Shown: in pieces, positions 238 through 48,524 of the stretch | Numbering within the stretch: position 1 is the stretch's first letter | How the letters are laid out: each line of letters opens with the position of its first letter | DNA from: Candidatus Woesearchaeota archaeon | Lineage (GTDB): Archaea; Nanobdellota; Nanobdellia; Woesearchaeales; BS150m-G63 | Assembly (NCBI GenBank): GCA_016784165.1 | Contig: JADHVD010000003.1 | Coordinates: forward strand, 6,867-70,866 | Length of the DNA stretch: 64,000 nucleotides | Direction: 5' to 3' | Translations under genes and position numbers: made by a program | Notes under the pieces: generated by a model | What the model was told of the DNA's origin: nothing | Database searches by the model: none | Seen by the model: only the letters and a program-made list of their open reading frames with translations

Positions 238-3200
238 TTAAGGATTACCATAACTCTGAGCCAAAGTTCCTTTCAGTTTAAGATTCCCGCTATTATCAAA
301 GAAAGCTATTAAAGAATCAGAAGCATTAACAAACTTCAAAGCAGTTCCAGAAACACTCATAACAGCATTCTCAGTTAACTCCCCAACCAAATACAAATTC
401 CCAGTATTTGAAACATAAGCAATATTTGTTCCAGCATTATCTTGTAAAATAAAAGAATTAGCCCCAGGATTCAAACTACCTTGATTATCTGACAACACTC
501 CGCGGATAAACATATTTCCAGTATCATCAATACTTCCAACAATATTATCAGAACTATTAGTGATAGCAAACTTATTACTTGTAGGGATCAACAAACTCAT
601 TGTAACATATAAAATACTATTACTAGTAATATTAACTCCCTGCGAATCAACATCATACCCGCTCTTAGTGGTATTCATAGTATAATTAGTAAGATAATTC
701 TTAACACCAACAACCCAATCACAACTAGAACAATTTTCATAATATTCACTAATGTTTTGTTTTACTATCCATCCATCTCCACCACTTAAAACAGAAAATC
801 CCAAATCACCATTAACATTCCAAGCACTCACGTTAGCCCCACCAACATCCCCATTGCTATCATTCACATAGACATCTAGGTACCAGTTTACATAAAGCAC
901 ACCACTACCAGAATAATAAAACAAAGTAGCACTTTCATTAAAAGAAACATTTACAAAAGTGTTTGCACCAGCTGAAGTCCCCTCAATCCAAACATCAGCA
1001 TAATCACCCCAAAATAAAGAATTATCATCAAAAGTAGAATCTATAAATCTATTTCCAGATGAATTTAAGAAATAAACCCCTGCGTCTTGATTATCAGTAA
1101 CCAAAACATCATAAAAACTGTTGTTGTAAGAATCATCAAAGCTTACTCCTGAATAATTGTTATACTTTATCTCAACATCTGTAACATTATTGTTATTAGA
1201 TCCATCACTAAATTCAATCCCATCTAAATAAGAATTGTGTATTGTAAGATTATAAAGAGTGTTATTCTCACAAGCACTTGCTAATATAACTCCTGCTCCA
1301 AGTTGAGTCAAATTAAACAATTGATTATCAATCCTATTCCCTATAGATGAAGAATGAAGATATACAAAATTATCAGTAGGATTTCTTATAATATTTTCAG
1401 TTATATTATTATTACTAGAAGCATCTAACATTATACCATAATTATTACAGTTATCACAACCACCAGTTCCAATAAGCTCATTAGAACTTATTACACTATC
1501 ATCACAATTATCTAACTGAATCGCAGCAAAAATATCTCCACTCTGAGTGTCATTAATATAATTATCCTCAACAATATGTCCAGATCCCTCAACATAGATT
1601 CCACTTCCAGAAATATCATAGATGATATTATTAGTCACATTATTTCCAATTCCTCCAGATACAGAAATACCAACACTCCCAACTTCCCCATCCCCAATAT
1701 CTCTCACAGTGTTAGAATCTATGAGAATATTGTCAGCAGTATCAGAACCAATTCCTGCAACAGTGTAATTACTATCAACTAAATGAATTGAATTATTGAA
1801 AACATAACCATCATCAGAACCATCATCATAATATATTCCATAAGTAAAGTCAGTAATCTCACAGTTCTTAACAGTGACATTAGTAACATTATCTATATTT
1901 ATTGCAGTAAAAGTATCAACATAATTTGTATTATATTCTCCATCTATATGGTATCCTGCACAATCAAACACAACATCAGAAGCATTGATATTAAAACAAA
2001 GTTCAGTATCATTGTAATAATTTATACTTGCATTCATCTCATGAGTTCCACTCACAGTAATATTACTACAACTATCATAAGTATGGCTTGGATCATAAGC
2101 AAAATCAGTTACAGTCATCTCTTGATTACTGAATTCAAAAATTAAAGTAGCATAACCAGCAATATTCATATGGTTTACAAATCTTCCAATCTCACTACAG
2201 CTGTAATCCTCAATCAAAAACCCAACAGGTTTTATTGAATCATCACTACCAATTGAGCTATAATCATAAACATACCCATCACCACTAATAATTTTCAACA
2301 CATCAAGTAAAGAATCATCCCCACATTTTAGATCTACAAACCTCATCTCATCAACACTTCCACCATTATCAATCATAATCTCTTCCCAATAAGAGTTGTT
2401 ACTACTAATACTCAAATTAGCAGTTCCAGTGGTGTTAAACATCACAGTCCAAGTATCTCCATCACGTAGATATTCGATAGGATTCAACACATTAATTTCA
2501 ATCTCATAAGTTTGGTTAGATAGATGAGGCACTATCCATTCAACATAATCTACCAATCCATCATCAGTAGTATCATAACCATCAAAGTTTACGCTCTCAC
2601 GTTTTCCATCAACAATCCAATACAGATTAACACTCTCAACAGCACTTTCAGGAATAAAAGTATAAGCCAAAATATCTTCATAATGTATTTCAGAGCTCAC
2701 AACTATCCTCTTTAGCCCATTACCTAATTCTTCTTCAACAGCAGTGGGGCCGGGTAATTCATATTCTATTTCAATCTCATCAACAACTTCTTCAACAATA
2801 AGCTCTGTTTCATTCCCAATATCCTCTGCAACAACATAACCAGTAAATCTAAATAAGGATTTTAGCCAATTAAATAACTCAAACAACAACCCATCACCAA
2901 CTTCAGTAACCGCTCCACCAGTTATCAAATTGTGCTCACTCAATTCTTCAACTTCTTCACCCTTTTTAACAACAACTTTGTCAGAGATATCTTTCTCAAT
3001 CCTTCCAGTTATTTTCTTAACCTCAATATTGCTCGCATTTTTAGGCAATTCAACAATAAGATTTTTCTTAGGCGCAGTAAGTTTAACTTTTTTAATAAAT
3101 TTAACAGGACGATTAATCATAACTCTACCAATCATTTTTTCTTCTACACTAACATTAACAGTCACATTTTCAGTAATATTAACAATAACATTCTCAGTAA

Positions 3201-14114: not shown

Positions 14115-14561
14115 ATGAAGTTAGAGATAATTAAACAAGAAAAACAACCACTATTATCTAGAATAGAAATCATGGCTAAAATAACTTTTCAAGGTGCAAC
14201 TCCTTCAAACGAAAATATAAAAAAAGCAATAGCCACAAAATTAAAAGCAGACGAATCTTTTACAGTTATTAAACATATTTATACCGAATTTGGTTTACAA
14301 GAAGGAGATGTTGAAGCATTTGTTTATGACGATAAAAAAGTAATGGCAGTTCTTGAGAAAAAAGCAAAAAAACAAAAAGAAAAAGAAGCAAAAATAGCAG
14401 AAAAAGCAAAAACAGCACCTGCAGAACAACCTAAGGAAGAACAACCTAAGGAAGAACAACCTAAGGAAGAACAACCTAAGGAAGAACAACCTAAGGAAGA
14501 ACAACCTAAGGAAGAACAACCTAAGGAAGAACAACCTAAGGAAGAAAAAAAAGATAACTAA
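14115..14561 (+). CDS. rps24e: Ribosomal protein S24e with a C-terminal (EQPKE)x8 extension
   Basis: The N-terminal core MKLEIIKQEKQPLLSRIEI...FGLQEGDVEAFVYDD fits S24e, as does synteny. The tail is a low-complexity repeat. Confidence 0.8.
   Translation: MKLEIIKQEKQPLLSRIEIMAKITFQGATPSNENIKKAIATKLKADESFTVIKHIYTEFGLQEGDVEAFVYDDKKVMAVLEKKAKKQKEKEAKIAEKAKTAPAEQPKEEQPKEEQPKEEQPKEEQPKEEQPKEEQPKEEQPKEEKKDN
14424..14543. repeat. Eight perfect tandem copies of the 15-bp unit GAACAACCTAAGGAA inside rps24e
   Basis: Read directly; it encodes the EQPKE repeats. Confidence 0.95.
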
Positions 14562-20662: not shown

Positions 20663-21307
20663 TTACTCCTTTATTATTTCTGCCTGGAACTTATACACCT
20701 TAGTGTCTTCATTTCTCCAAGCATCAGAATCAAGCCCTGCTTTGTGACATGTTTGTCTTAAGAATTCTTCACTACTCCATCCATATTCTTCAGCAACTTG
20801 TGGCAATAATAATCCTTTATACTCACCACTCTCAATAATTAACCCATCAGTCCCCACTTCAATTTTATCAAAATATTCCTCAACATTATCAACCCCACTA
20901 ACATTATCCACCCCACTAACATTATCAACTCCATCAACATTATCAACCCCACGAACATTATCATTCTCACCAACCTTAATCAATTTAGGTTTAGTCAAAA
21001 CAGAGATCTCAATCTTGATATCTTTCCACTCCCTTTTATCAAGTGGAACAAATCTAGGATCTTCAAAAGCTGCAGATTTAGCACACATAATAACCCCTTT
21101 CCATAAGGGAAAAATAGGTTCTATAAATCCAATACATCCACGCAAATTCTCCTCTTTCCCAGTTATTTCATTGAGCGTAACAAACACCCCTAATTTATCA
21201 GAAAACTTTTTCTTTAACTCATTACTAACATCCATCACCTTATCAGAAAAACGCGCCTCTATAACATCCTTCGTTAATTTTATCAGTTTTTTTGCAGAAT
21301 CAATCAT
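20663..21307 (-). CDS. AMMECR1-domain protein with an inserted GVDNV(S/D) hexapeptide repeat
   Basis: The signature LRGCIGFIEP is present, followed by GLLLPQV. The repeat insertion reads NVRGVDNVDGVDNVSGVDNVSGVDNVEE. Confidence 0.75.
   Translation of the reverse strand: MIDSAKKLIKLTKDVIEARFSDKVMDVSNELKKKFSDKLGVFVTLNEITGKEENLRGCIGFIEPIFPLWKGVIMCAKSAAFEDPRFVPLDKREWKDIKIEISVLTKPKLIKVGENDNVRGVDNVDGVDNVSGVDNVSGVDNVEEYFDKIEVGTDGLIIESGEYKGLLLPQVAEEYGWSSEEFLRQTCHKAGLDSDAWRNEDTKVYKFQAEIIKE
20883..20962. repeat. Roughly 4.5 tandem copies of an 18-bp unit (ACATTATCAACCCCACTA-like) inside the AMMECR1 gene
   Basis: Read directly; it encodes the GVDNVx repeats. Confidence 0.9.
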
Positions 21308-22431: not shown

Positions 22432-22555
22432 ATTTACCCTTACAAACCCTCACTTTAACCTTGAATTACTTTAAAAATAATCCATTATTACCTATTTTTA
22501 TCAATATTACCACTTATATATAACTTTTCTTTCTAAATACATCATACATTTTTAT

Positions 22556-22915
22556 ATTACAAACTCTCACAAACTATTACAAACCATTACAATCTTTAGT
22601 AATTATCAACCATTCCCACTAATCCCTCTTAATTCCCATCAATTCCCATCAATTCCCATCAATTCCCAATAATCCCTCTTAATTCCCATCAATTATCTAC
22701 ATTCCCATTCTATTTTCTCCTCTATACTGATCATAATTTCAGTCCAACCCCATTCCCACTCCATTCCCACTCCATTCCCAAACTATTCCCAGTACGTTCC
22801 CACTCCAGTCCCACCAAAAAAACTCACACCCACTCAAAACCTTATTTTTAACCATTTCAAAGCCTTAATAATTCCCACATCTTTCCCACTCTATTCCCAA
22901 AACATTCCCAAAAAT
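22556..22915. repeat. Helically phased same-strand repeat arrays in a 516-bp non-coding region
   Basis: ATTACAA-type boxes occur at 22556, 22566 (variant), 22576 and 22586. TTCCCA boxes occur every 10 bp at 22613, 22633, 22643, 22653, 22663 and 22683, and at 22702 (19 bp after 22683). They occur every 11 bp at 22753, 22764, 22775, 22786 and 22797, with a variant at 22808. They occur every 11 bp again at 22872, 22883, 22894 and 22905. Confidence 0.9.
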
Positions 22916-22947
22916 TTATATATGAGAATGCTTTTATTACAAAAAGA

Positions 22948-23598
22948 ATGTTTTGGTCTAAAAAAAAATATGCAACAAAAGAAGATATTACGTCACTCCA
23001 TTCTACTTTAGCAGATTCTTTTAATAATGTAAAAACACACACATCTAACATCTTTGAATGGATCAATTATTTTCATCTTAAACACCAAGAACAAGAAAAA
23101 ATAATGGCAAATCAACAAAGACTTCTTCAACACATTCACGAAAAATTATCAACATCACCTCTTTCAAAACATGAAATAAGAGAAATTCTCGATGATCATT
23201 ACGCATTCAAAGAACTCCTTAATAGAATACAACAATTTGACCAACAAATTAACACAATCATGGATTCACACCAACCTATGCACGACAAAATTCATGAATT
23301 ACACTCAAGAATAGATCAAATAGAAAATCCACCAAAACCATCTTTTAAAGAAAAGTTAATTCAAAAAATAACTAGAAACTCTAAAGGTTATGTAAAAAAT
23401 TTAGTATTTTCTTTAATTCAAAAATATGAAAATATTTCATCTTTAAAATTAAGGGAAATAGTTGTAGATGAACAAGGATTATGTTCCAAAAGTTCTTTTT
23501 ACCGTATTCTTACAGAGATAGAGGAGTCAGATCATATAGATATTGTCAGGCAAGGGAACGAAAAATTATACCTTAGTAAATTAATTAAACGAATTTAG
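22948..23598 (+). CDS. Coiled-coil protein with a C-terminal winged-helix DNA-binding domain (paralog 1)
   Basis: It has a heptad-rich N-terminal two-thirds. The C-terminal LKLREIVVDEQGLCSKSSFYRILTEIEESDHIDIVRQGNEKLYLSKL looks like a wHTH. A TATA-like AAATTTATATAT lies about 25 bp upstream. Confidence 0.55.
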   Translation: MFWSKKKYATKEDITSLHSTLADSFNNVKTHTSNIFEWINYFHLKHQEQEKIMANQQRLLQHIHEKLSTSPLSKHEIREILDDHYAFKELLNRIQQFDQQINTIMDSHQPMHDKIHELHSRIDQIENPPKPSFKEKLIQKITRNSKGYVKNLVFSLIQKYENISSLKLREIVVDEQGLCSKSSFYRILTEIEESDHIDIVRQGNEKLYLSKLIKRI

Positions 23599-23644: not shown

Positions 23645-24208
23645 ATGGTAAACAATAATTCAAAAAATCAAGTTTCTCGTCGAGAAAAAGAACAATTAAA
23701 TAAAAAACTGAAATCTACTTTTAATAAAATTAAGAATGAATTTGAAGAACATCTCGACGCTATAAATGAAAACACAAACGAAATTCATTCTAATTATGAA
23801 TATCTTTGTGAATTAGATTCCAAAATAGATAAACTAAATGAAAAATTAGATGAAGTAATGATGTTTATTCAACACTTAGGAAAAAAACCATTAAAATTCA
23901 AAAAACCAACATTCAAAATAACACCTTTAACGAGAAAAGAACAAGAAATATTCTTAACTTTCTATACCCTAGAACAAGAGCAAGAATCCGTCACTTATTC
24001 AAAAATTGCTAAATATTTATGCTTACCTAATTTATTAGTTCAAAATTATATCACAAACCTTATTGAAAAAGGAATCCCAATCTATAAAAAATATTTAGAT
24101 AAAGAAGTTTATTTGAGACTTAGTCCACAATTTAGGGAACTTCAAGCAAAAAAGAATATTGTAAAAATTAATGAATCTGTTTCTAAGAAAATAGTATCTC
24201 AAAAATAG
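23645..24208 (+). CDS. Coiled-coil protein with a C-terminal winged-helix DNA-binding domain (paralog 2)
   Basis: It has the same architecture as paralog 1. STFNKIKNEFEEHLDAINENTNEI here compares with DSFNNVKTHTSNIFEWINYF there. The C-terminal segment is LTRKEQEIFLTFYTLEQEQESVTYSKIAKYLCLPNLLVQNYITNLIEKGIPI. Confidence 0.55.
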   Translation: MVNNNSKNQVSRREKEQLNKKLKSTFNKIKNEFEEHLDAINENTNEIHSNYEYLCELDSKIDKLNEKLDEVMMFIQHLGKKPLKFKKPTFKITPLTRKEQEIFLTFYTLEQEQESVTYSKIAKYLCLPNLLVQNYITNLIEKGIPIYKKYLDKEVYLRLSPQFRELQAKKNIVKINESVSKKIVSQK

Positions 24209-24340: not shown

Positions 24341-25150
24341 TTAGAGTTCATCTAAAGGGCTTTTTACCTTCTTCAATTCTTCTTTAGATACTCTTGTATA
24401 GATCTGAGTTGTTTGTAGATTGGAGTGCCCTAGTAATTCCTGTATTTTCCTAATATCTACTCCAGCCTCAAGCAGATGCGTTGCAAAACAATGTCTTAAA
24501 GTATGAGGGCTAACATTTTTAGTGATTCCAGCTCGTTTACTAGCATTCTTTACTATATCTTGTACATTCCTTGCACTAATCGCCCCATTCGGCCCTGAAA
24601 ACACATATTCCGACTCAGAAACCCTGCTTCCAAGGTATTTTTTCAATTCTTTAATCAAATTTTCAGAAAGAATAACAATTCTATCTTTTTTACCTTTACC
24701 GCCACGAACCCAAGCAATTTTTTCATCAAATTCAAGATCCCCCTTTTTTAACCCAATACATTCACTTAATCGTAAACCAGAAGAATATAACATTTTGATA
24801 ATCAATTTACTTTTTTCAGTTCCTGCAGAATTTATCAATCTTCGCACTTCTTCTTTAGAAAGCACAATTGGTAGCTTTTTATCAATTTTAGGGGTTTTGA
24901 AATTAACAACCCCTTTTTTTAGCACTTCATCATAAAAAAACTTTAACGCAGCTTTTACTAAACTAACAGAAGAAGCAGAATAATTTTCATCAGTTAAAAG
25001 ATGGCCAATATATTTTTTTATATCATCTTCCAAAACATCATCCGGCGTTTTTTGGATATATTTAAGAAACAGCCTATTATAATACAAATAAGCCTTCAAA
25101 GTCTGCTTACTAAACCCCCTTAATTTCAATTCCGTAATTAATTTTTCCAT
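24341..25150 (-). CDS. xerA: Tyrosine recombinase of the XerA/XerC/XerD type
   Basis: The catalytic region HTLRHCFATHLLEAGVDIRKIQELLGHSNLQTTQIYTRV and SGLRLSECIGL (Arg box) are present. The N-terminal SAM-like core-binding domain is LRGFSKQTLKAY. Confidence 0.85.
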   Translation of the reverse strand: MEKLITELKLRGFSKQTLKAYLYYNRLFLKYIQKTPDDVLEDDIKKYIGHLLTDENYSASSVSLVKAALKFFYDEVLKKGVVNFKTPKIDKKLPIVLSKEEVRRLINSAGTEKSKLIIKMLYSSGLRLSECIGLKKGDLEFDEKIAWVRGGKGKKDRIVILSENLIKELKKYLGSRVSESEYVFSGPNGAISARNVQDIVKNASKRAGITKNVSPHTLRHCFATHLLEAGVDIRKIQELLGHSNLQTTQIYTRVSKEELKKVKSPLDEL

Positions 25151-25163
25151 TTTGTGCTTAAAA

Positions 25164-25193
25164 ATACGCGTATAATGTACCTTATACGCGTAT
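25164..25193. other. dif-like recombination site or operator: ATACGCGTATAA-TGTACC-TTATACGCGTAT
   Basis: It has perfect 12-bp inverted arms around a 6-bp spacer, 14 bp upstream of the xerA start codon. The inner ATAA-TGTA..-TTAT matches the E. coli dif core as I remember it. Confidence 0.55.
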
Positions 25194-25210
25194 CTATATA
25201 AATCTTCCCA

Positions 25211-25258
25211 AAGATTTATGCTTGAAGACGAATTTTTTAGTCTTTTTGTATAAATCTT
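25211..25258. repeat. Intergenic hairpin family, copy c (next to the dif-like site)
   Basis: The sequence is AAGATTTAT-G-CTTG-AAGAC-GAATTTTTTA-GTCTT-TTTG-T-ATAAATCTT, with a 9-bp perfect outer stem. Confidence 0.6.
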
Positions 25259-25686
25259 ACCCTTAAAACCTTATTTTTGTGCTGAAACCTTCTTACTTTA
25301 CCTTATTTACACAAAAACCCCAGCATTTTAGCAAAAAATAGCAGATTCAAAATATCTCAAAAACCAATAAAAATAGAAACACCAAAAAATCTTAATTTTC
25401 CAAAAAAATAAAAACTAATTTTCAGCAAAAAATAATTTCTACAAATCAAAAAAAACAAAAATCTTTTCACCTAATTATTTTCAATATTGTAATTAACTAA
25501 ACTAAAACATTTAAGAAAAGCTTAAAACATTTAAGCTCAATTTAATCAACTAAAACTTTTAAGCAAATCCTAAAAGTTATAATCACTACAAAAAACACAT
25601 CAAATTATATCTATTAGAAAACATATTTTAAAAAATAACCATTCTAACCTATAAATAATAAAATATATACTAAAGAATATATTAAT

Positions 25687-27637: not shown

Positions 27638-28879
27638 TCACCCCTCAATAATTCCATAACCAATCAATCTAAACCTAGATCCAACCATCCTGGAAATAGT
27701 TACCCTATCACCAATATCAGCACATATAGGTAACTTTAATTTAGATTTGAATCCACCCTTACTTAATTCACTAACAACACCTGCAGTTACAGATGAATTT
27801 ACATTGAACATTATAATTTCATTAATTTTTATTGGTTCAACATCCAACTCTTCTTTAGTTCCAACAACTCTTTTTAATAAATTTGATTTAAGTTTTAATT
27901 CATTCCAAACAATAGGCAATTTTCCAAATAATCCTACAATATTTCCACTAAGATTATCTGATTTAACAAGCGAAGGATCTAATGAAGTTGCTATAGCTAT
28001 AGAACCACCAGGTCCAGCTTCATTTATTTGGTGAGTTCCACTCATTAATCCAGTTACTTTAGTTTTTATAGGTATCCAAATTTTTTGATTATGCTCTTCT
28101 TTGCTTCTACCAGGCAATATAGTGATATCATCTCCTTTTTTCAATATCCCTTCCCTCAAAGCACCTCCAAGAACTCCTCCAACTAACTTTTTTGGACCAG
28201 AACCTGGTTTATTAATATCAAAAGATCTTACAACAAACATAATGGGGGGCTTCTTTTTATCCCTCTTAGGGGTGGGGATTTTTTCCTCTATAGATTTTAT
28301 TAAGTACCCAATATTAATTGCAAATTGGGCAGAAATAGGAATTATTGGAGCATCTTTGTAAGGAGTATCTTTAATTAATTCTTTTATCTCTTTATAATTT
28401 TTTAATACATCTTCTTTGGACACTAAATCAATTTTATTTTGGACAATTATCACATTTTTAATCCCCATAATCTCTAAAGCCATCAGATGTTCTCTTGTTT
28501 GTGGTTGAGGGCATTTTTCATTTGCAGAAATTAGCAATAAAGCACCATCCATCACATTTGCCCCACTCAGCATAGTAGCCATTAAACTTTCGTGTCCAGG
28601 AGCATCAACAAAAGAAACACCCCTCAACTCTTTAGTTTTTGATTTGCAGTGCTCACAAGTTTCTTTTACTGTATAAGCTTTAGCACCTTTACATTTACCA
28701 CATTTTCTAAATATTGTATTTGCATACCCCAACCTTATGGTGATTCCTTTTTTCAGTTCTTCAGAATGGGTGTCTGTCCATTTACCACTAAGCCTCTCTG
28801 TCAAGGTAGTTTTACCATGATCTACATGTCCAACCAACCCAATATTTACTTCTGGTTGTTTATAGGTATCCTTTTTCAC
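27638..28879 (-). CDS. eif2g: Translation initiation factor aIF2 gamma subunit
   Basis: G1 is GLVGHVDHGKTTL and G3 is DAPGHE. NKID is present, as is the zinc knuckle CGKCKGAKAYTVKETCEHC. Synteny after S6e fits. Confidence 0.9.
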   Translation of the reverse strand: MKKDTYKQPEVNIGLVGHVDHGKTTLTERLSGKWTDTHSEELKKGITIRLGYANTIFRKCGKCKGAKAYTVKETCEHCKSKTKELRGVSFVDAPGHESLMATMLSGANVMDGALLLISANEKCPQPQTREHLMALEIMGIKNVIIVQNKIDLVSKEDVLKNYKEIKELIKDTPYKDAPIIPISAQFAINIGYLIKSIEEKIPTPKRDKKKPPIMFVVRSFDINKPGSGPKKLVGGVLGGALREGILKKGDDITILPGRSKEEHNQKIWIPIKTKVTGLMSGTHQINEAGPGGSIAIATSLDPSLVKSDNLSGNIVGLFGKLPIVWNELKLKSNLLKRVVGTKEELDVEPIKINEIIMFNVNSSVTAGVVSELSKGGFKSKLKLPICADIGDRVTISRMVGSRFRLIGYGIIEG

Positions 28880-29556
28880 GATTTGTCACCATCACCTTTT
28901 TTAGATTCTTCTTCGCTTTCTTTTTTTGAAAGTGTTGAAGAATCTTTTTTAGATTCTTCTTCGCTTTCTTTTTCTGAAGATACTGAAGAATCTTTTTTAG
29001 ATTCTTCTTCGCTTTCTTTTTCTGAAGATACTGAAGAATCTTTTTTAGATTCTTCTTCGGATTTTTCTTCAGGTTTATTTTCAGACTTTTCTTTTTCAAC
29101 TGGTTCGTCTTTTTCTTTCTTAGAATCCTTTCCTACTTTCTCTTCAGCTTTTTCTTTAGAGTCTTCTCCTTCTTTAGGTGTTTCAGCTGTTACACCTAAT
29201 TTAACTTTACCATATTTTATAATTTTAAGATTAATTTGACTTATATTTCTACCAATTGTATGGCCTCTTACATTCTTCCTTTGTCTTTGTCCTTTTCTTT
29301 TTATTTTAGCACCTACTCCAGAAATAACTAATATTCTTTTTCTTTCAGTACCATTAACATCTTTCCTCATTGGAAATCCACAGCTATCACTACCACCAGT
29401 AATTTCAAACTCATAACCATTCAATCCAAAAGAGTCACCCTTAATTTTTTCTCCTAACTTTTTACCTAAGAAGACTTCTGCTTCAGCATCTTTTGCTTCA
29501 CGCTGATAACATTTGCCGGTCTTAGGGTCAGCTAAAACTAATTTATAATCTGTCAT
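28876..29556 (-). CDS. rps6e: Ribosomal protein S6e with a roughly 95-aa Ser/Lys/Glu-rich repetitive tail
   Basis: The core is MTDYKLVLADPKTGKCYQ...GGSDSCGFPMRKDV...RKNVRGHTIG. I chose the start at 29554-29556 because a GGAGG lies 8 nt upstream; the track ORF starts 15 nt earlier. Confidence 0.85.
   Translation of the reverse strand: MTDYKLVLADPKTGKCYQREAKDAEAEVFLGKKLGEKIKGDSFGLNGYEFEITGGSDSCGFPMRKDVNGTERKRILVISGVGAKIKRKGQRQRKNVRGHTIGRNISQINLKIIKYGKVKLGVTAETPKEGEDSKEKAEEKVGKDSKKEKDEPVEKEKSENKPEEKSEEESKKDSSVSSEKESEEESKKDSSVSSEKESEEESKKDSSTLSKKESEEESKKGDGDKS
28897..29059. repeat. Roughly 3.4 tandem copies of a 48-bp unit inside rps6e (encoding KDSSVSSEKESEEESK)
   Basis: Read directly: units at 28897-28944, 28945-28992 and 28993-29040, and a partial unit at 29041-29059. 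Confidence 0.9.
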
Positions 29557-29586
29557 TTTTACGGCCTCCAACTCGTTGGGGGATGC

Positions 29587-47255: not shown

Positions 47256-48524
47256 TTATGAATTATAAATTCTTAATTGATTTCTTCCATTTGTTTTTGC
47301 TTTATATAGTGCTTCATCTGCTCTTTTTATGAAAATATCTGTTAGAAGATTCATTTTTAAGTCTTCATCATTTAATATATCTGTTAAATTTTTATTTATT
47401 TCTTTAGAATAAATTTCTGCTTGGTCTTTTATTGATTCTAATCCATATAAAATTTGCCCATTTTTTAATCCTGTAAATTTGGAATAAATTTCTAATAAAG
47501 GAATTATTTTTAATTTATTTTTAACATATTTATTTATTAATACTTGTCCTGATTTTCCTTTTAAAATTCTTATTTCTGGAACTTCAAAACTTGAAACAAC
47601 ACCTATGCTAGTGTTTATATTAACTTTTTCTTCTTTACCCGTATGTATATTTTTAAAATAAAAATTTGTTTTTGATAAGTTTATCCTATATTGATCTAAT
47701 TTATTAATTATTCCTTTATAAAATTTTGATGAATTGTCAAAGTTTGCAAAAGAAATAAGAAATTCTTCCCCTCCAAATCTACCATGCAAGTCCCGACTTC
47801 TAAAACTATTTTTACTTAATTCTGTTGTTTTTCTTAATACTTCATCTCCATTCAAGTGTCCATAATTGTCATTTATTCTTTTGAAGTGATCCAAATCATA
47901 CATTGTAAGAACTATTTCAGGAGTATTAGTTGCACGAAAATTTAATAAAGTTTCTAATTCATTTTTCAGTTTTTCTTTGAATGTTTTCTTCCTAAATAAT
48001 CCTGTTAATTCATCTATTCCTAAAAAATTATCATGATATTGGATTAATTTTCCAAAAGCAGGAATTATTTCTTCAATTTTTATTTTATCCACTTCAGTAA
48101 ATCCATTTTTTTTATTTAATAATTGTATCGCCCCAATTATATCTCCATTTGCTTTTATCGGGATTGTTAACATATTTTTTGTTTTATAACCAGTTTGGCT
48201 ATCAAATAATCCTAAATGATAGGGGTTTTTTTTAACTTCATTGCACAAATCAGTTTTTCCTTCTGTTATTACTTTTCCAACTATTCCTTGATTAATAGAT
48301 AATCTTTTTCCAACTAAACCCTCTTCCCCACCAATAACATCCTTAAAAATTAATTCATTACCTTCTTTTATAAATAAAGAAGCAGCATCTGCACCAGTCA
48401 TATCTTTACATTTTAAATTCATATATTTAATCAAATTCCTAATATCTGTATCAAGATAATCAAATAATTCCATTAATGTGGTTTTGGTATGATTTTCTAA
48501 ATTTAATTTATCCTCTATATTCAT
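47256..48524 (-). CDS. GAF-domain plus GGDEF-domain protein (predicted diguanylate cyclase) with a large insertion in the GGDEF domain
   Basis: The motifs are DELTGLFRKKTF, MYDLDHFKRINDNYGHLNGDEVL, the I-site RSRD, the active site RFGGEEF (47760-47774), TSIGVV and RADEALYKAKTNGRNQ. A TATA-like CTTTAAATAG lies about 26 nt upstream of the ATG. Confidence 0.85.
   Translation of the reverse strand: MNIEDKLNLENHTKTTLMELFDYLDTDIRNLIKYMNLKCKDMTGADAASLFIKEGNELIFKDVIGGEEGLVGKRLSINQGIVGKVITEGKTDLCNEVKKNPYHLGLFDSQTGYKTKNMLTIPIKANGDIIGAIQLLNKKNGFTEVDKIKIEEIIPAFGKLIQYHDNFLGIDELTGLFRKKTFKEKLKNELETLLNFRATNTPEIVLTMYDLDHFKRINDNYGHLNGDEVLRKTTELSKNSFRSRDLHGRFGGEEFLISFANFDNSSKFYKGIINKLDQYRINLSKTNFYFKNIHTGKEEKVNINTSIGVVSSFEVPEIRILKGKSGQVLINKYVKNKLKIIPLLEIYSKFTGLKNGQILYGLESIKDQAEIYSKEINKNLTDILNDEDLKMNLLTDIFIKRADEALYKAKTNGRNQLRIYNS

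Follow-up and report, generated by a model that had tools for sequence, protein, structure and literature searches.

We analysed a 64,000-nt stretch (the window) of contig JADHVD010000003.1 from a Candidatus Woesearchaeota archaeon, in which a 516-bp non-coding gap (22432–22947) carries arrays of short direct repeats upstream of two adjacent genes, here called A and B. The gap contains 16 TTCCCA boxes, all of them on the + strand, and none on its − strand. Seven boxes form a first array with starts at 22613, 22633, 22643, 22653, 22663, 22683 and 22702, and the others fall into a distal cluster (22753, 22764, 22775, 22786 and 22797) and a proximal cluster (22872, 22883, 22894 and 22905). The spacings in order are 20, 10, 10, 10, 20 and 19 bp within the first array, 51 bp to the distal cluster, 11, 11, 11 and 11 bp within it, 75 bp to the proximal cluster, and 11, 11 and 11 bp within that. 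GTCCCA is found at 22808 (+), AATCCCTCTT has just two copies in 64 kb, at 22621 and 22671, and ATTACAA boxes start at 22556, 22576 and 22586 with a CTCACAA at 22566. These boxes had been listed in an earlier reading made from the letters alone (the sequence-only reading); on recheck, every coordinate of the 16 TTCCCA boxes proved exact, and the positions of the variants, of GTCCCA and of the ATTACAA-type boxes were all confirmed.

The boxes are concentrated in the gap by two measures: (i) it holds 16 of the 42 TTCCCA copies on the + strand of the window; and (ii) TTCCCA-N5-TTCCCA occurs seven times in the window, every time inside the gap, where dinucleotide shuffles lead to an expectation of 0.04. 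Tandem Repeats Finder recovered these arrays as well, at periods of 10 and 11, and the ATTACAA-type repeats with a period of 10 and 3.8 copies. The gap contains 12 G among its 516 bases, and the lowest-G and highest-C stretch of the window falls inside it. An Rfam search of the gap gave no match. The features of the gap and of the two genes are as follows.

22556–22592, + strand: four ATTACAA/CTCACAA-type repeats of 10 bp; lineage-specific, unalignable to the gap of the relative with a 94%-identical protein A
22612–22708, + strand: first TTCCCA array in 10-bp register, seven boxes plus two AATCCCTCTT variants
22750–22814, + strand: conserved distal cluster, five TTCCCA and one GTCCCA in exact 11-bp steps; core invariant, spacers variable
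22815–22871, + strand: inter-cluster spacer, 64 bp from box start to box start; lacks the TTATCGTCGATAA near-palindrome in the window's clade
22872–22910, + strand: conserved proximal cluster, four TTCCCA at 11 bp; ends 4 bp before the TATA box
22915–22922, + strand: TATA box TTTATATA of the A–B operon, starting 33 bp before the ATG
22923–22929, − strand: TGAGAAT (ATTCTCA on the − strand), an inverted box in degenerate form; lies between TATA box and start site
22948–23598, + strand: gene A, 216 aa; long helices at residues 11–126 and C-terminal winged helix at 133–215
23645–24208, + strand: gene B, 187 aa; helix at residues 5–78 and winged helix at 97–186

The 10-bp and 11-bp registers described in the sequence-only reading are both present, but they do not add up to a single lattice over the whole gap: the step from the distal to the proximal cluster is 64 bp, or 9 mod 11, which leaves the clusters 2 bp out of register. 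That reading had also let the third array end at a TATA-like box; the TATA box is indeed there, and the final box starts 9 bp ahead of it.

Conservation of the boxes, the promoter and the proteins

A search of one genome per GTDB species turned up 189 relatives, from which we kept the best 80 loci (species-level genomes of Woesearchaeota/Nanoarchaeota, DPANN archaea). Same-strand TCCCA boxes are present in the 600 bp upstream of gene A in all 80, at a median number of 8 (range 3–22); over the loci, 698 boxes are direct and 62 inverted. Box-to-box spacings are 11 bp (311 times), 22 bp (52), 33 bp (25), 44/45 bp (16) and 55 bp (12), with 10 bp occurring 29 times and 12 bp 22 times, and a median of 60% of the boxes share one mod-11 class where 9% is expected. 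The unit is 11 bp long with the consensus a-Y-A-K-T-C-C-C-A-a-n in a single orientation, and its G-poverty is specific to clades, AGTCCCA being used in others. The proposal of the sequence-only reading that the array is phased with the helix and shows all its boxes on one face, in the manner of sites bound cooperatively by proteins, is supported. Many of the genomes with the locus (L007, L009, L013, L017, L020 and others) bear the title 'uncultured Methanosarcinales archaeon', and one is entered as 'Patescibacteria group bacterium', labels that look like mis-assignments or binning errors.

The worry that similar arrays might be common throughout these genomes does not hold locally. Over 81 loci, the 650 bp ahead of gene A contain 321 TCCCA-N6-TCCCA pairs, and the other 1.17 Mb, counted on both strands, contain 14, several of which lie within or beside an array. 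Collection-wide scans with a four-box pattern are non-specific and mostly return unrelated perfect 11-bp tandem repeats and phage iterons; gene A lies downstream in 14 of 120 metagenome matches, and 29 of the 120 leave no room for it.

We aligned the gap of the window with the gaps of relatives whose protein A is 94%, 68% and 66% identical. The distal and proximal clusters keep their positions in L001, L008 and L004, with invariant cores and variable spacers, and the gaps of the 94%, 66% and 43% relatives all carry same-strand TTCCCA boxes at 11 bp. The first, 10-bp array is partial in L001 and absent from L004 and L008, and neither it nor the ATTACAA repeats are conserved even in the relative with the 94%-identical protein A. 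Because its units are near-perfect AATTCCCATC copies, the 10-bp array looks like a recent lineage-specific expansion that placed extra boxes on the same platform, and the ATTACAA-type repeats probably stand outside the conserved element. Over 80 species the box core and its phase remain constant while the spacers diverge, which argues that core and helical phase are under selection and are not a product of slippage.

To place the boxes relative to the promoter, 62 promoters were anchored on the TATA box, and TATA and ATG distances were taken from 67 loci. Box starts peak at −17, −28, −39 and −50 and then at −83, −94, −105, −116 and −127, with the lattice positions −61 and −72 vacant, and thus follow a single 11-bp lattice over ~120 bp. 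In most species, this puts all sites on the same face of the helix. The start of the last box lies 17–18 bp ahead of the TATA box in 44 of the 67 loci, and the TATA box (TTTAWATA) starts 30–31 bp before the ATG in 47 of the 67, the commonest arrangement. This short distance suggests a leaderless A–B mRNA, and in the window the transcript is predicted to be leaderless or nearly so. The TATA box is usually preceded by a CGAAA/GAAAAG element resembling the transcription factor B recognition element (BRE), and the array ends a few bp upstream of this canonical BRE/TATA; counterpart two-cluster arrays in other genomes have 3–6 boxes at 11 bp per cluster, again just upstream of BRE/TATA. A perfect inverted TGGGA at +10/+11, in the interval from TATA box to start, is found in 17 of the 62 promoters, and the window has its degenerate TGAGAAT there.

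Most other lineages carry the near-palindrome TTATCGTCGATAA between the two clusters, in a spacer of 33–55 bp (e.g. L010, L016, L021, L029, L031, L042 and L051). TTATCGTCGATAA is also found ~25–35 bp upstream of the TATA box of rpoL in many Woesearchaeal genomes, where it is sometimes flanked by convergent TCCCA/TGGGA boxes (L034, L043, L064, L068, L070 and L077). It is probably a second operator, and the occurrence of palindrome and boxes upstream of the rpoL TATA box suggests that the factors reading them act at more than one promoter.

AlphaFold models of A and B, each built from about 45–50 homologues, predict a coiled coil plus a winged helix for both proteins (pLDDT, the predicted local distance difference test, 80.6 for A and 86.5 for B). 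Searches of Pfam, NCBIfam, PHROG and the PDB found no family for either; the homologues come from Woesearchaeota/Nanoarchaeota genomes and metagenomes, and none was found in IMG/VR viral contigs. Foldseek returned generic winged-helix DNA binders only, at E ≥ 1e-3 (the Hop2 winged-helix domain, TubR, ArsR/MarR, AF1382 and AspA). The sequence-only reading had called A and B paralogous coiled-coil plus winged-helix proteins. Their shared architecture is borne out by the models, but the paralogy is possible and unproven, with a BLASTP E of 0.26 and an hhalign probability of 66% that concerns the N-terminal helices only.

The recognition helix of A reads SK-S/T-S/A-FYR in 76 of 76 loci read, with the exact CSKSSFYR in about 69, and the winged helix of B is conserved to a similar degree. 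Variants of the helix are rare, CSKST being found in three loci with more TCCTA boxes (n = 3). At the level of sequence, the invariance of the helix is parallel to that of the box core and does not discriminate between A and B as the binder. Family A comprises 656 cluster representatives at E ≤ 1e-3 with total lengths of about 200–411 aa. When the longer homologues were checked for domain fusions, the extra length was coiled coil only, so that A appears to be built from an N-terminal head that is conserved, a rod that differs in length and a DNA-binding tail at the C-terminus. HTH_24 matches 15 of 46 homologues of B, and in one of 299 aa (P0148) an N-terminal PAS sensor domain is fused to full-length B, which hints that the activity of B may be signal-controlled, as expected of a regulator.

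Genes A and B follow the array in 81 of 81 and 73 of 81 loci, respectively. The conserved neighbours over the same loci are rpoL (70), the methyltransferase (70), a hypothetical gene (70), XerA (54), UPP synthase (49) and PAC2 (41), and include a DHH phosphoesterase and further hypotheticals. In the window, the surrounding genes are archaeal housekeeping genes encoding RNA polymerase subunit L (rpoL), AMMECR1, UPP synthase, a small-domain methyltransferase, XerA, PAC2, a deoxynucleoside kinase and aIF2-gamma. The order methyltransferase (−), gap, A, B, xerA (−), gap, PAC2 is kept in the 94% and 43% relatives; in the 66% relative, the contig ends just past B. The sequence-only reading had asked whether the block from 22.4 to 25.7 kb is an insertion, a possibility that falls away with gene order kept among housekeeping genes, rpoL and aIF2-gamma included, across dozens of species. 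A mobile element is likewise ruled out by this chromosomal synteny and the lack of A and B in IMG/VR.

XerA was identified by the NCBIfam equivalog NF040815 (282 bits; gene 24341–25150, − strand). A perfect 11-6-11 palindrome, TACGCGTATAA TGTACC TTATACGCGTA, lies at 25165–25192, 15 bp upstream of xerA and 2.2 kb from the array. We regard it as a strong candidate for the dif site. Both xerA and the dif-like site named in the sequence-only reading are found downstream of A and B. The palindrome adjoins xerA in 3 of 54 xerA loci, all in the window's own clade (also L007 and L008), and in the remaining 51 none was found beside xerA; a link between array and dif is weak. We also rejected the array as a cer/psi-like accessory sequence of Xer/dif: it is 2.2 kb from the dif-like core and not adjacent to it, and the palindrome stands beside xerA in those three loci. 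Between xerA and PAC2 lies a second large non-coding gap (25151–25686, 536 bp), which is very A-rich, contains the 20-bp direct repeat AAACTTAAAACATTTAAGAA at 25499–25535 and gave no Rfam match.

Outside the 80 loci, one metagenomic contig (L321, Ga0209518_1018144, 3.9 kb, GC 0.42) carries a composite module of four boxes, TTTGTCGCCGACAAA and four further boxes at 1847–1954, directly upstream of a 174-aa open reading frame (ORF). It contains neither A nor B, which fits a portable operator read in trans, and it encodes an A32/FtsK-HerA-like packaging ATPase (PHROG terminase, 1.9e-8). This single example may be a virus or plasmid that uses the host-type module in trans; no relatives of its protein were found in IMG/VR viral contigs, and the composite pattern of boxes, palindrome and boxes had 0 matches there. 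Arrays with a TCCCA core phased at 11 bp are frequent in phage contigs and other DNA (many of L087–L206). For example, six TTCCCA boxes at 11 bp lie at 3200–3290 of L091, upstream of a sigma-70 promoter whose gene encodes a Rep-like ATPase, with a winged helix at its C-terminus. Recurrent GCTATCCCAYG arrays are located near contig ends. These arrays are convergent, iteron-like analogues, usually perfect tandem repeats, and are unrelated to the A/B element.

Further features were recorded elsewhere in the window. A 422-aa protein with GAF and GGDEF domains (diguanylate cyclase; GGDEF E = 1.5e-26) is encoded at 47256–48524 on the − strand. Proteins of cyclic di-GMP signalling are unusual in archaea, which suggests that the gene may have been horizontally acquired. 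Perfect or near-perfect in-frame tandem repeats are present (i) at 14423–14546, with 8.3 copies of a 15-bp unit in ORF 14115–14561, (ii) at 20882–20983 in the AMMECR1 gene, with an 18/36-bp unit encoding VDNV(S/D)G repeats, and (iii) at 28896–29059, with 3.4 copies of a 48-bp unit in ORF 28876–29571.

Proposed function of the array and competing explanations

We consider the boxes to be a conserved cis docking array for sequence-specific DNA-binding proteins, located in the promoter of the operon that likely encodes them and serving autoregulation, and assign this explanation a probability of roughly 60%. The neighbouring genes had been put forward as encoding the binders in the sequence-only reading, and their modelled winged helices make A and B obvious candidates. 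According to the proposed mechanism, the winged helices of A and/or B would each read one TCCCA box, head to tail, in the way that winged helices of the PhoB/OmpR or TubR type read direct repeats, and the N-terminal coiled coils would link adjacent subunits, possibly as A–B hetero-oligomers, into a cooperative filament. Occupancy beside BRE/TATA would then feed back on A–B transcription, with the inverted box between TATA box and start site adding to this feedback in many lineages. The central palindrome of other lineages would probably be read by a second factor or second protein, and the 10-bp array of the window would be a lineage-specific enlargement of the same platform. We found no published description of the array in the literature.

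Several observations weigh against this explanation or narrow it. The geometry and conservation of the sites can be read directly; the identity of the binder we infer from adjacency, fold and parallel invariance. We looked for covariation between helix and box over the loci and obtained nothing informative, because the box core never varies. The window's own clade departs from the common promoter geometry, its proximal cluster being 8 bp nearer to the TATA box than in most species and its clusters being 2 bp out of register. In the outlier L085 (9580–9997) there is no 11-bp lattice but three copies of a module with three TCCCA boxes at 9-bp spacing and an inverted box, and the recognition helix of its protein A reads IASKSSFYR. 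The promoter geometry does not point in one regulatory direction, as boxes upstream of BRE would favour activation and an inverted box downstream of the TATA box repression. For simple autoregulation, an operator of 1–4 sites would be enough, as against 8–22, so that the array may do more than regulate, and the variable rod of A looks more like a rod or tether than part of a compact transcription factor.

Many sites and a rod-like A leave room for a structural role, centromere-like or tethering. The array would then nucleate an A/B filament whose coiled-coil rods reach to a segregation or division structure, in the manner of ParR/parC, TubR/tubC or RacA/ram and with autoregulation as a by-product, an explanation we regard as rather unlikely but worth keeping in sight. 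It draws on a layout like that of parC and tubC, with two clusters of about 4–6 direct 11-bp repeats at the promoter of the binders' operon, on a number of sites (3–22, median 8) beyond what regulation requires, and on the arrangement of A as N-terminal head, very variable rod and C-terminal DNA-binding domain. The centromere binders TubR and AspA are among the Foldseek matches, with weak E-values, xerA, a gene of chromosome resolution, adjoins in 54 of 81 loci, and the putative mobile element on L321 has the module without A and B, as if borrowing a host partition machinery. What speaks against it is that neither the operon nor its conserved neighbours up to 10 kb away (80 loci) include an NTPase of the ParA, ParM or TubZ type, that the fold matches are to generic winged helices at E ≥ 1e-3, and that the constant spacing to BRE/TATA is more simply explained by control of transcription. 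In its most specific form, the locus would be the chromosomal centromere or anchor of Woesearchaeales, with A and B as a hitherto unknown kinetochore-like pair on the 11-bp lattice of about 9–20 sites and no motor in cis, which we hold to be distinctly unlikely; the locus, usually beside xerA, may then be tethered to a segregation or division structure, and mobile elements of the L321 type may copy the module to hitchhike. It is improbable, too, that the operator array is read by a different, unlinked transcription factor and that A and B are merely the regulated genes. The promoter-proximal geometry is conserved as it would be for such a factor, and box pairs together with the TCGTCGATAA palindrome upstream of rpoL in some genomes and on the contig without A and B suggest that the reading factor acts in trans at other promoters; yet two winged-helix genes with near-invariant recognition helices lie directly downstream in essentially every genome that has the array, and in arrays of this kind the binder is usually encoded by the locus itself.

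It is very improbable that the array is an iteron-bearing replication origin or, being near dif, a terminus or RTP/Tus-like polar fork barrier. The phased direct repeats are iteron-like and phages often have 11-bp TCCCA-core arrays beside replication genes, a dif-like site lies 2.2 kb away in the window, and a polar barrier would go well with boxes that all have one orientation. However, of the features of an iteron origin, only the phased direct repeats are present here; a Rep-type initiator next door and a location on a mobile element are absent, and the period is 11 bp instead of the usual iteron spacing of about 22 bp. Ten ORFs of 371–422 aa in the window gave no match to Orc1/Cdc6, and neither Orc1/Cdc6 nor a Rep-like gene was detected among the window's candidates or within 10 kb over 80 loci; in these loci, ORFs of 300–560 aa with the motif G..G.GK[ST] number two, SRP54 and an intein-containing AAA protein (single locus). 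Orc1/Cdc6 has been reported in 206 of 208 complete genomes of the phylum (bioRxiv 10.64898/2026.05.13.725050), so that the canonical initiator is expected elsewhere in these genomes. The boxes all point one way and are thus not inverted origin recognition boxes (ORBs) around an unwinding element; no inverted ORBs, ORB-like dyad or distinct unwinding element were seen at the array. The GC-skew check proposed in the sequence-only reading showed no change of sign at the array, in a test whose power is limited by its reach of 10 kb on each side and in which gene strand confounds. In a regression over 1,387 ORFs, skew depends on gene strand (+0.147) and hardly on the side of the array (+0.006 ± 0.004, t = 1.5; intercept −0.062), strand-balanced skew, taken from genes that do not belong to the conserved core, is negative to either side (−0.026 and −0.059), and the cumulative skew of the window runs monotonically through 22.5 kb. 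More distant genes to the left and right tend to be oriented toward the locus, a signal that conserved synteny confounds, and the dif-like site is adjacent in 3 of 54 loci only. The iteron and origin reading is thus not borne out by neighbouring genes, box orientation or skew. Finally, it is scarcely credible that the boxes are non-functional low-complexity or microsatellite DNA, or a UCCCA/UGGGA repeat element acting at the RNA level. Tandem repeats of 11 bp with TCCCA are often met in viral and metagenomic DNA of no relation, the 10-bp array of the window holds perfect recent duplicates, and the + strand of the gap is nearly G-free. Against low complexity stand the retention of core and phase over 80 species with diverging spacers and the use of AGTCCCA in other clades, the G-poverty being clade-specific, and against an RNA element stand the gaps in multiples of 11, which fit the helical phasing of DNA, the lack of an Rfam match, and the finding that no conserved promoter was seen upstream of the array in relatives.

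Two side observations concern the base composition around the array. The + strand of the window is strongly C-rich (C 11654, G 7900), and its cumulative GC skew falls almost without interruption to about 58 kb and then rises, a trend that mostly follows gene strand, with + strand genes past ~58 kb. In the 80-locus regression, a strand bias of about −0.06 remains to either side of the array.

Woesearchaeota and other DPANN archaea are uncultured, and little is known of their gene regulation and chromosome biology. The locus offers a cis-element with exact consensus and geometry in about 80 sampled species, two candidate binders and a prediction that can be tested in vitro. If the array is only autoregulatory, it would rank with the largest and best-ordered operator arrays described from archaea and could serve as a model for cooperative winged-helix filaments at BRE/TATA. 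If A and B also organise or segregate the chromosome, they would constitute a new archaeal segregation system, and the array would serve as a marker for this locus in metagenome-assembled genomes.

Comparison with known systems

The array can be compared with several systems in which repeated sites are read by DNA-binding proteins. With Rep-bound iterons and the ORBs of Orc1/Cdc6 it shares phased repeated sites adjoining a winged-helix gene, but differs from them in having no initiator homologue, nearby Orc1/Cdc6, unwinding element, inverted ORBs or skew switch, and in its core synteny. RacA with ram and MatP with matS combine a small DNA-binding domain with a coiled coil and bridge or tether DNA at specific chromosomal sites. 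The winged helix joined to a coiled coil in the models of A and B resembles this design; the sites of RacA and MatP are dispersed, whereas here one promoter carries a packed array, the domain order differs and no homology exists.

Archaeal autoregulators of the Ss-LrpB type bind several regularly spaced sites in their own promoter, cooperatively or with wrapping of the DNA, and archaeal activators such as Ptr2 typically bind just upstream of BRE/TATA, repressors after the TATA box. Regularly spaced sites in the operon's own promoter, just upstream of BRE/TATA, are found here as well, but the protein families are different, and the sites of Ss-LrpB and Ptr2 are palindromes several turns apart as opposed to dense 11-bp direct repeats. 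Winged helices of the PhoB/OmpR type bind direct repeats head to tail with an 11-bp period upstream of the core promoter, with boxes phased on one face. By analogy with the pho box, the 11-bp direct-repeat geometry would fit such binding. A and B differ in having no receiver domain and no Trans_reg_C match in Pfam, in the archaeal type of the promoter (BRE/TATA), in the number of boxes (8–22 as compared with 2–4) and in oligomerising presumably through coiled coils.

ParR/parC of plasmid R1 (type II) and TubR/tubC of pBtoxis (type III) use two blocks of ~11–12-bp direct repeats in one orientation and in helical phase. parC and tubC sit at the promoter of the binder's operon, where cooperative binding on one face of the DNA is combined with autoregulation, and TubR is itself a winged helix. 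The element described here differs in that no gene for a cytomotive NTPase (ParM, TubZ or ParA) is found in the operon or among the conserved neighbours, ORFs with a Walker A motif being essentially absent around the loci, and in being chromosomal and archaeal, not plasmid-borne. No sequence homology of A or B to ParR or TubR was detected (the Foldseek match to TubR, E = 0.036, is a generic winged-helix match), the candidate binders have long coiled coils, and a central palindrome separates the blocks in most lineages. The sequence-only reading had offered plasmid iterons, parC-type centromeres and nucleoprotein filaments at origins as analogies; those to iterons and origins fell away, and the parC-type centromere, although its motor gene is missing here, is closest by layout, with the 11-bp direct repeats forming two clusters at the promoter of the candidate binders' operon.

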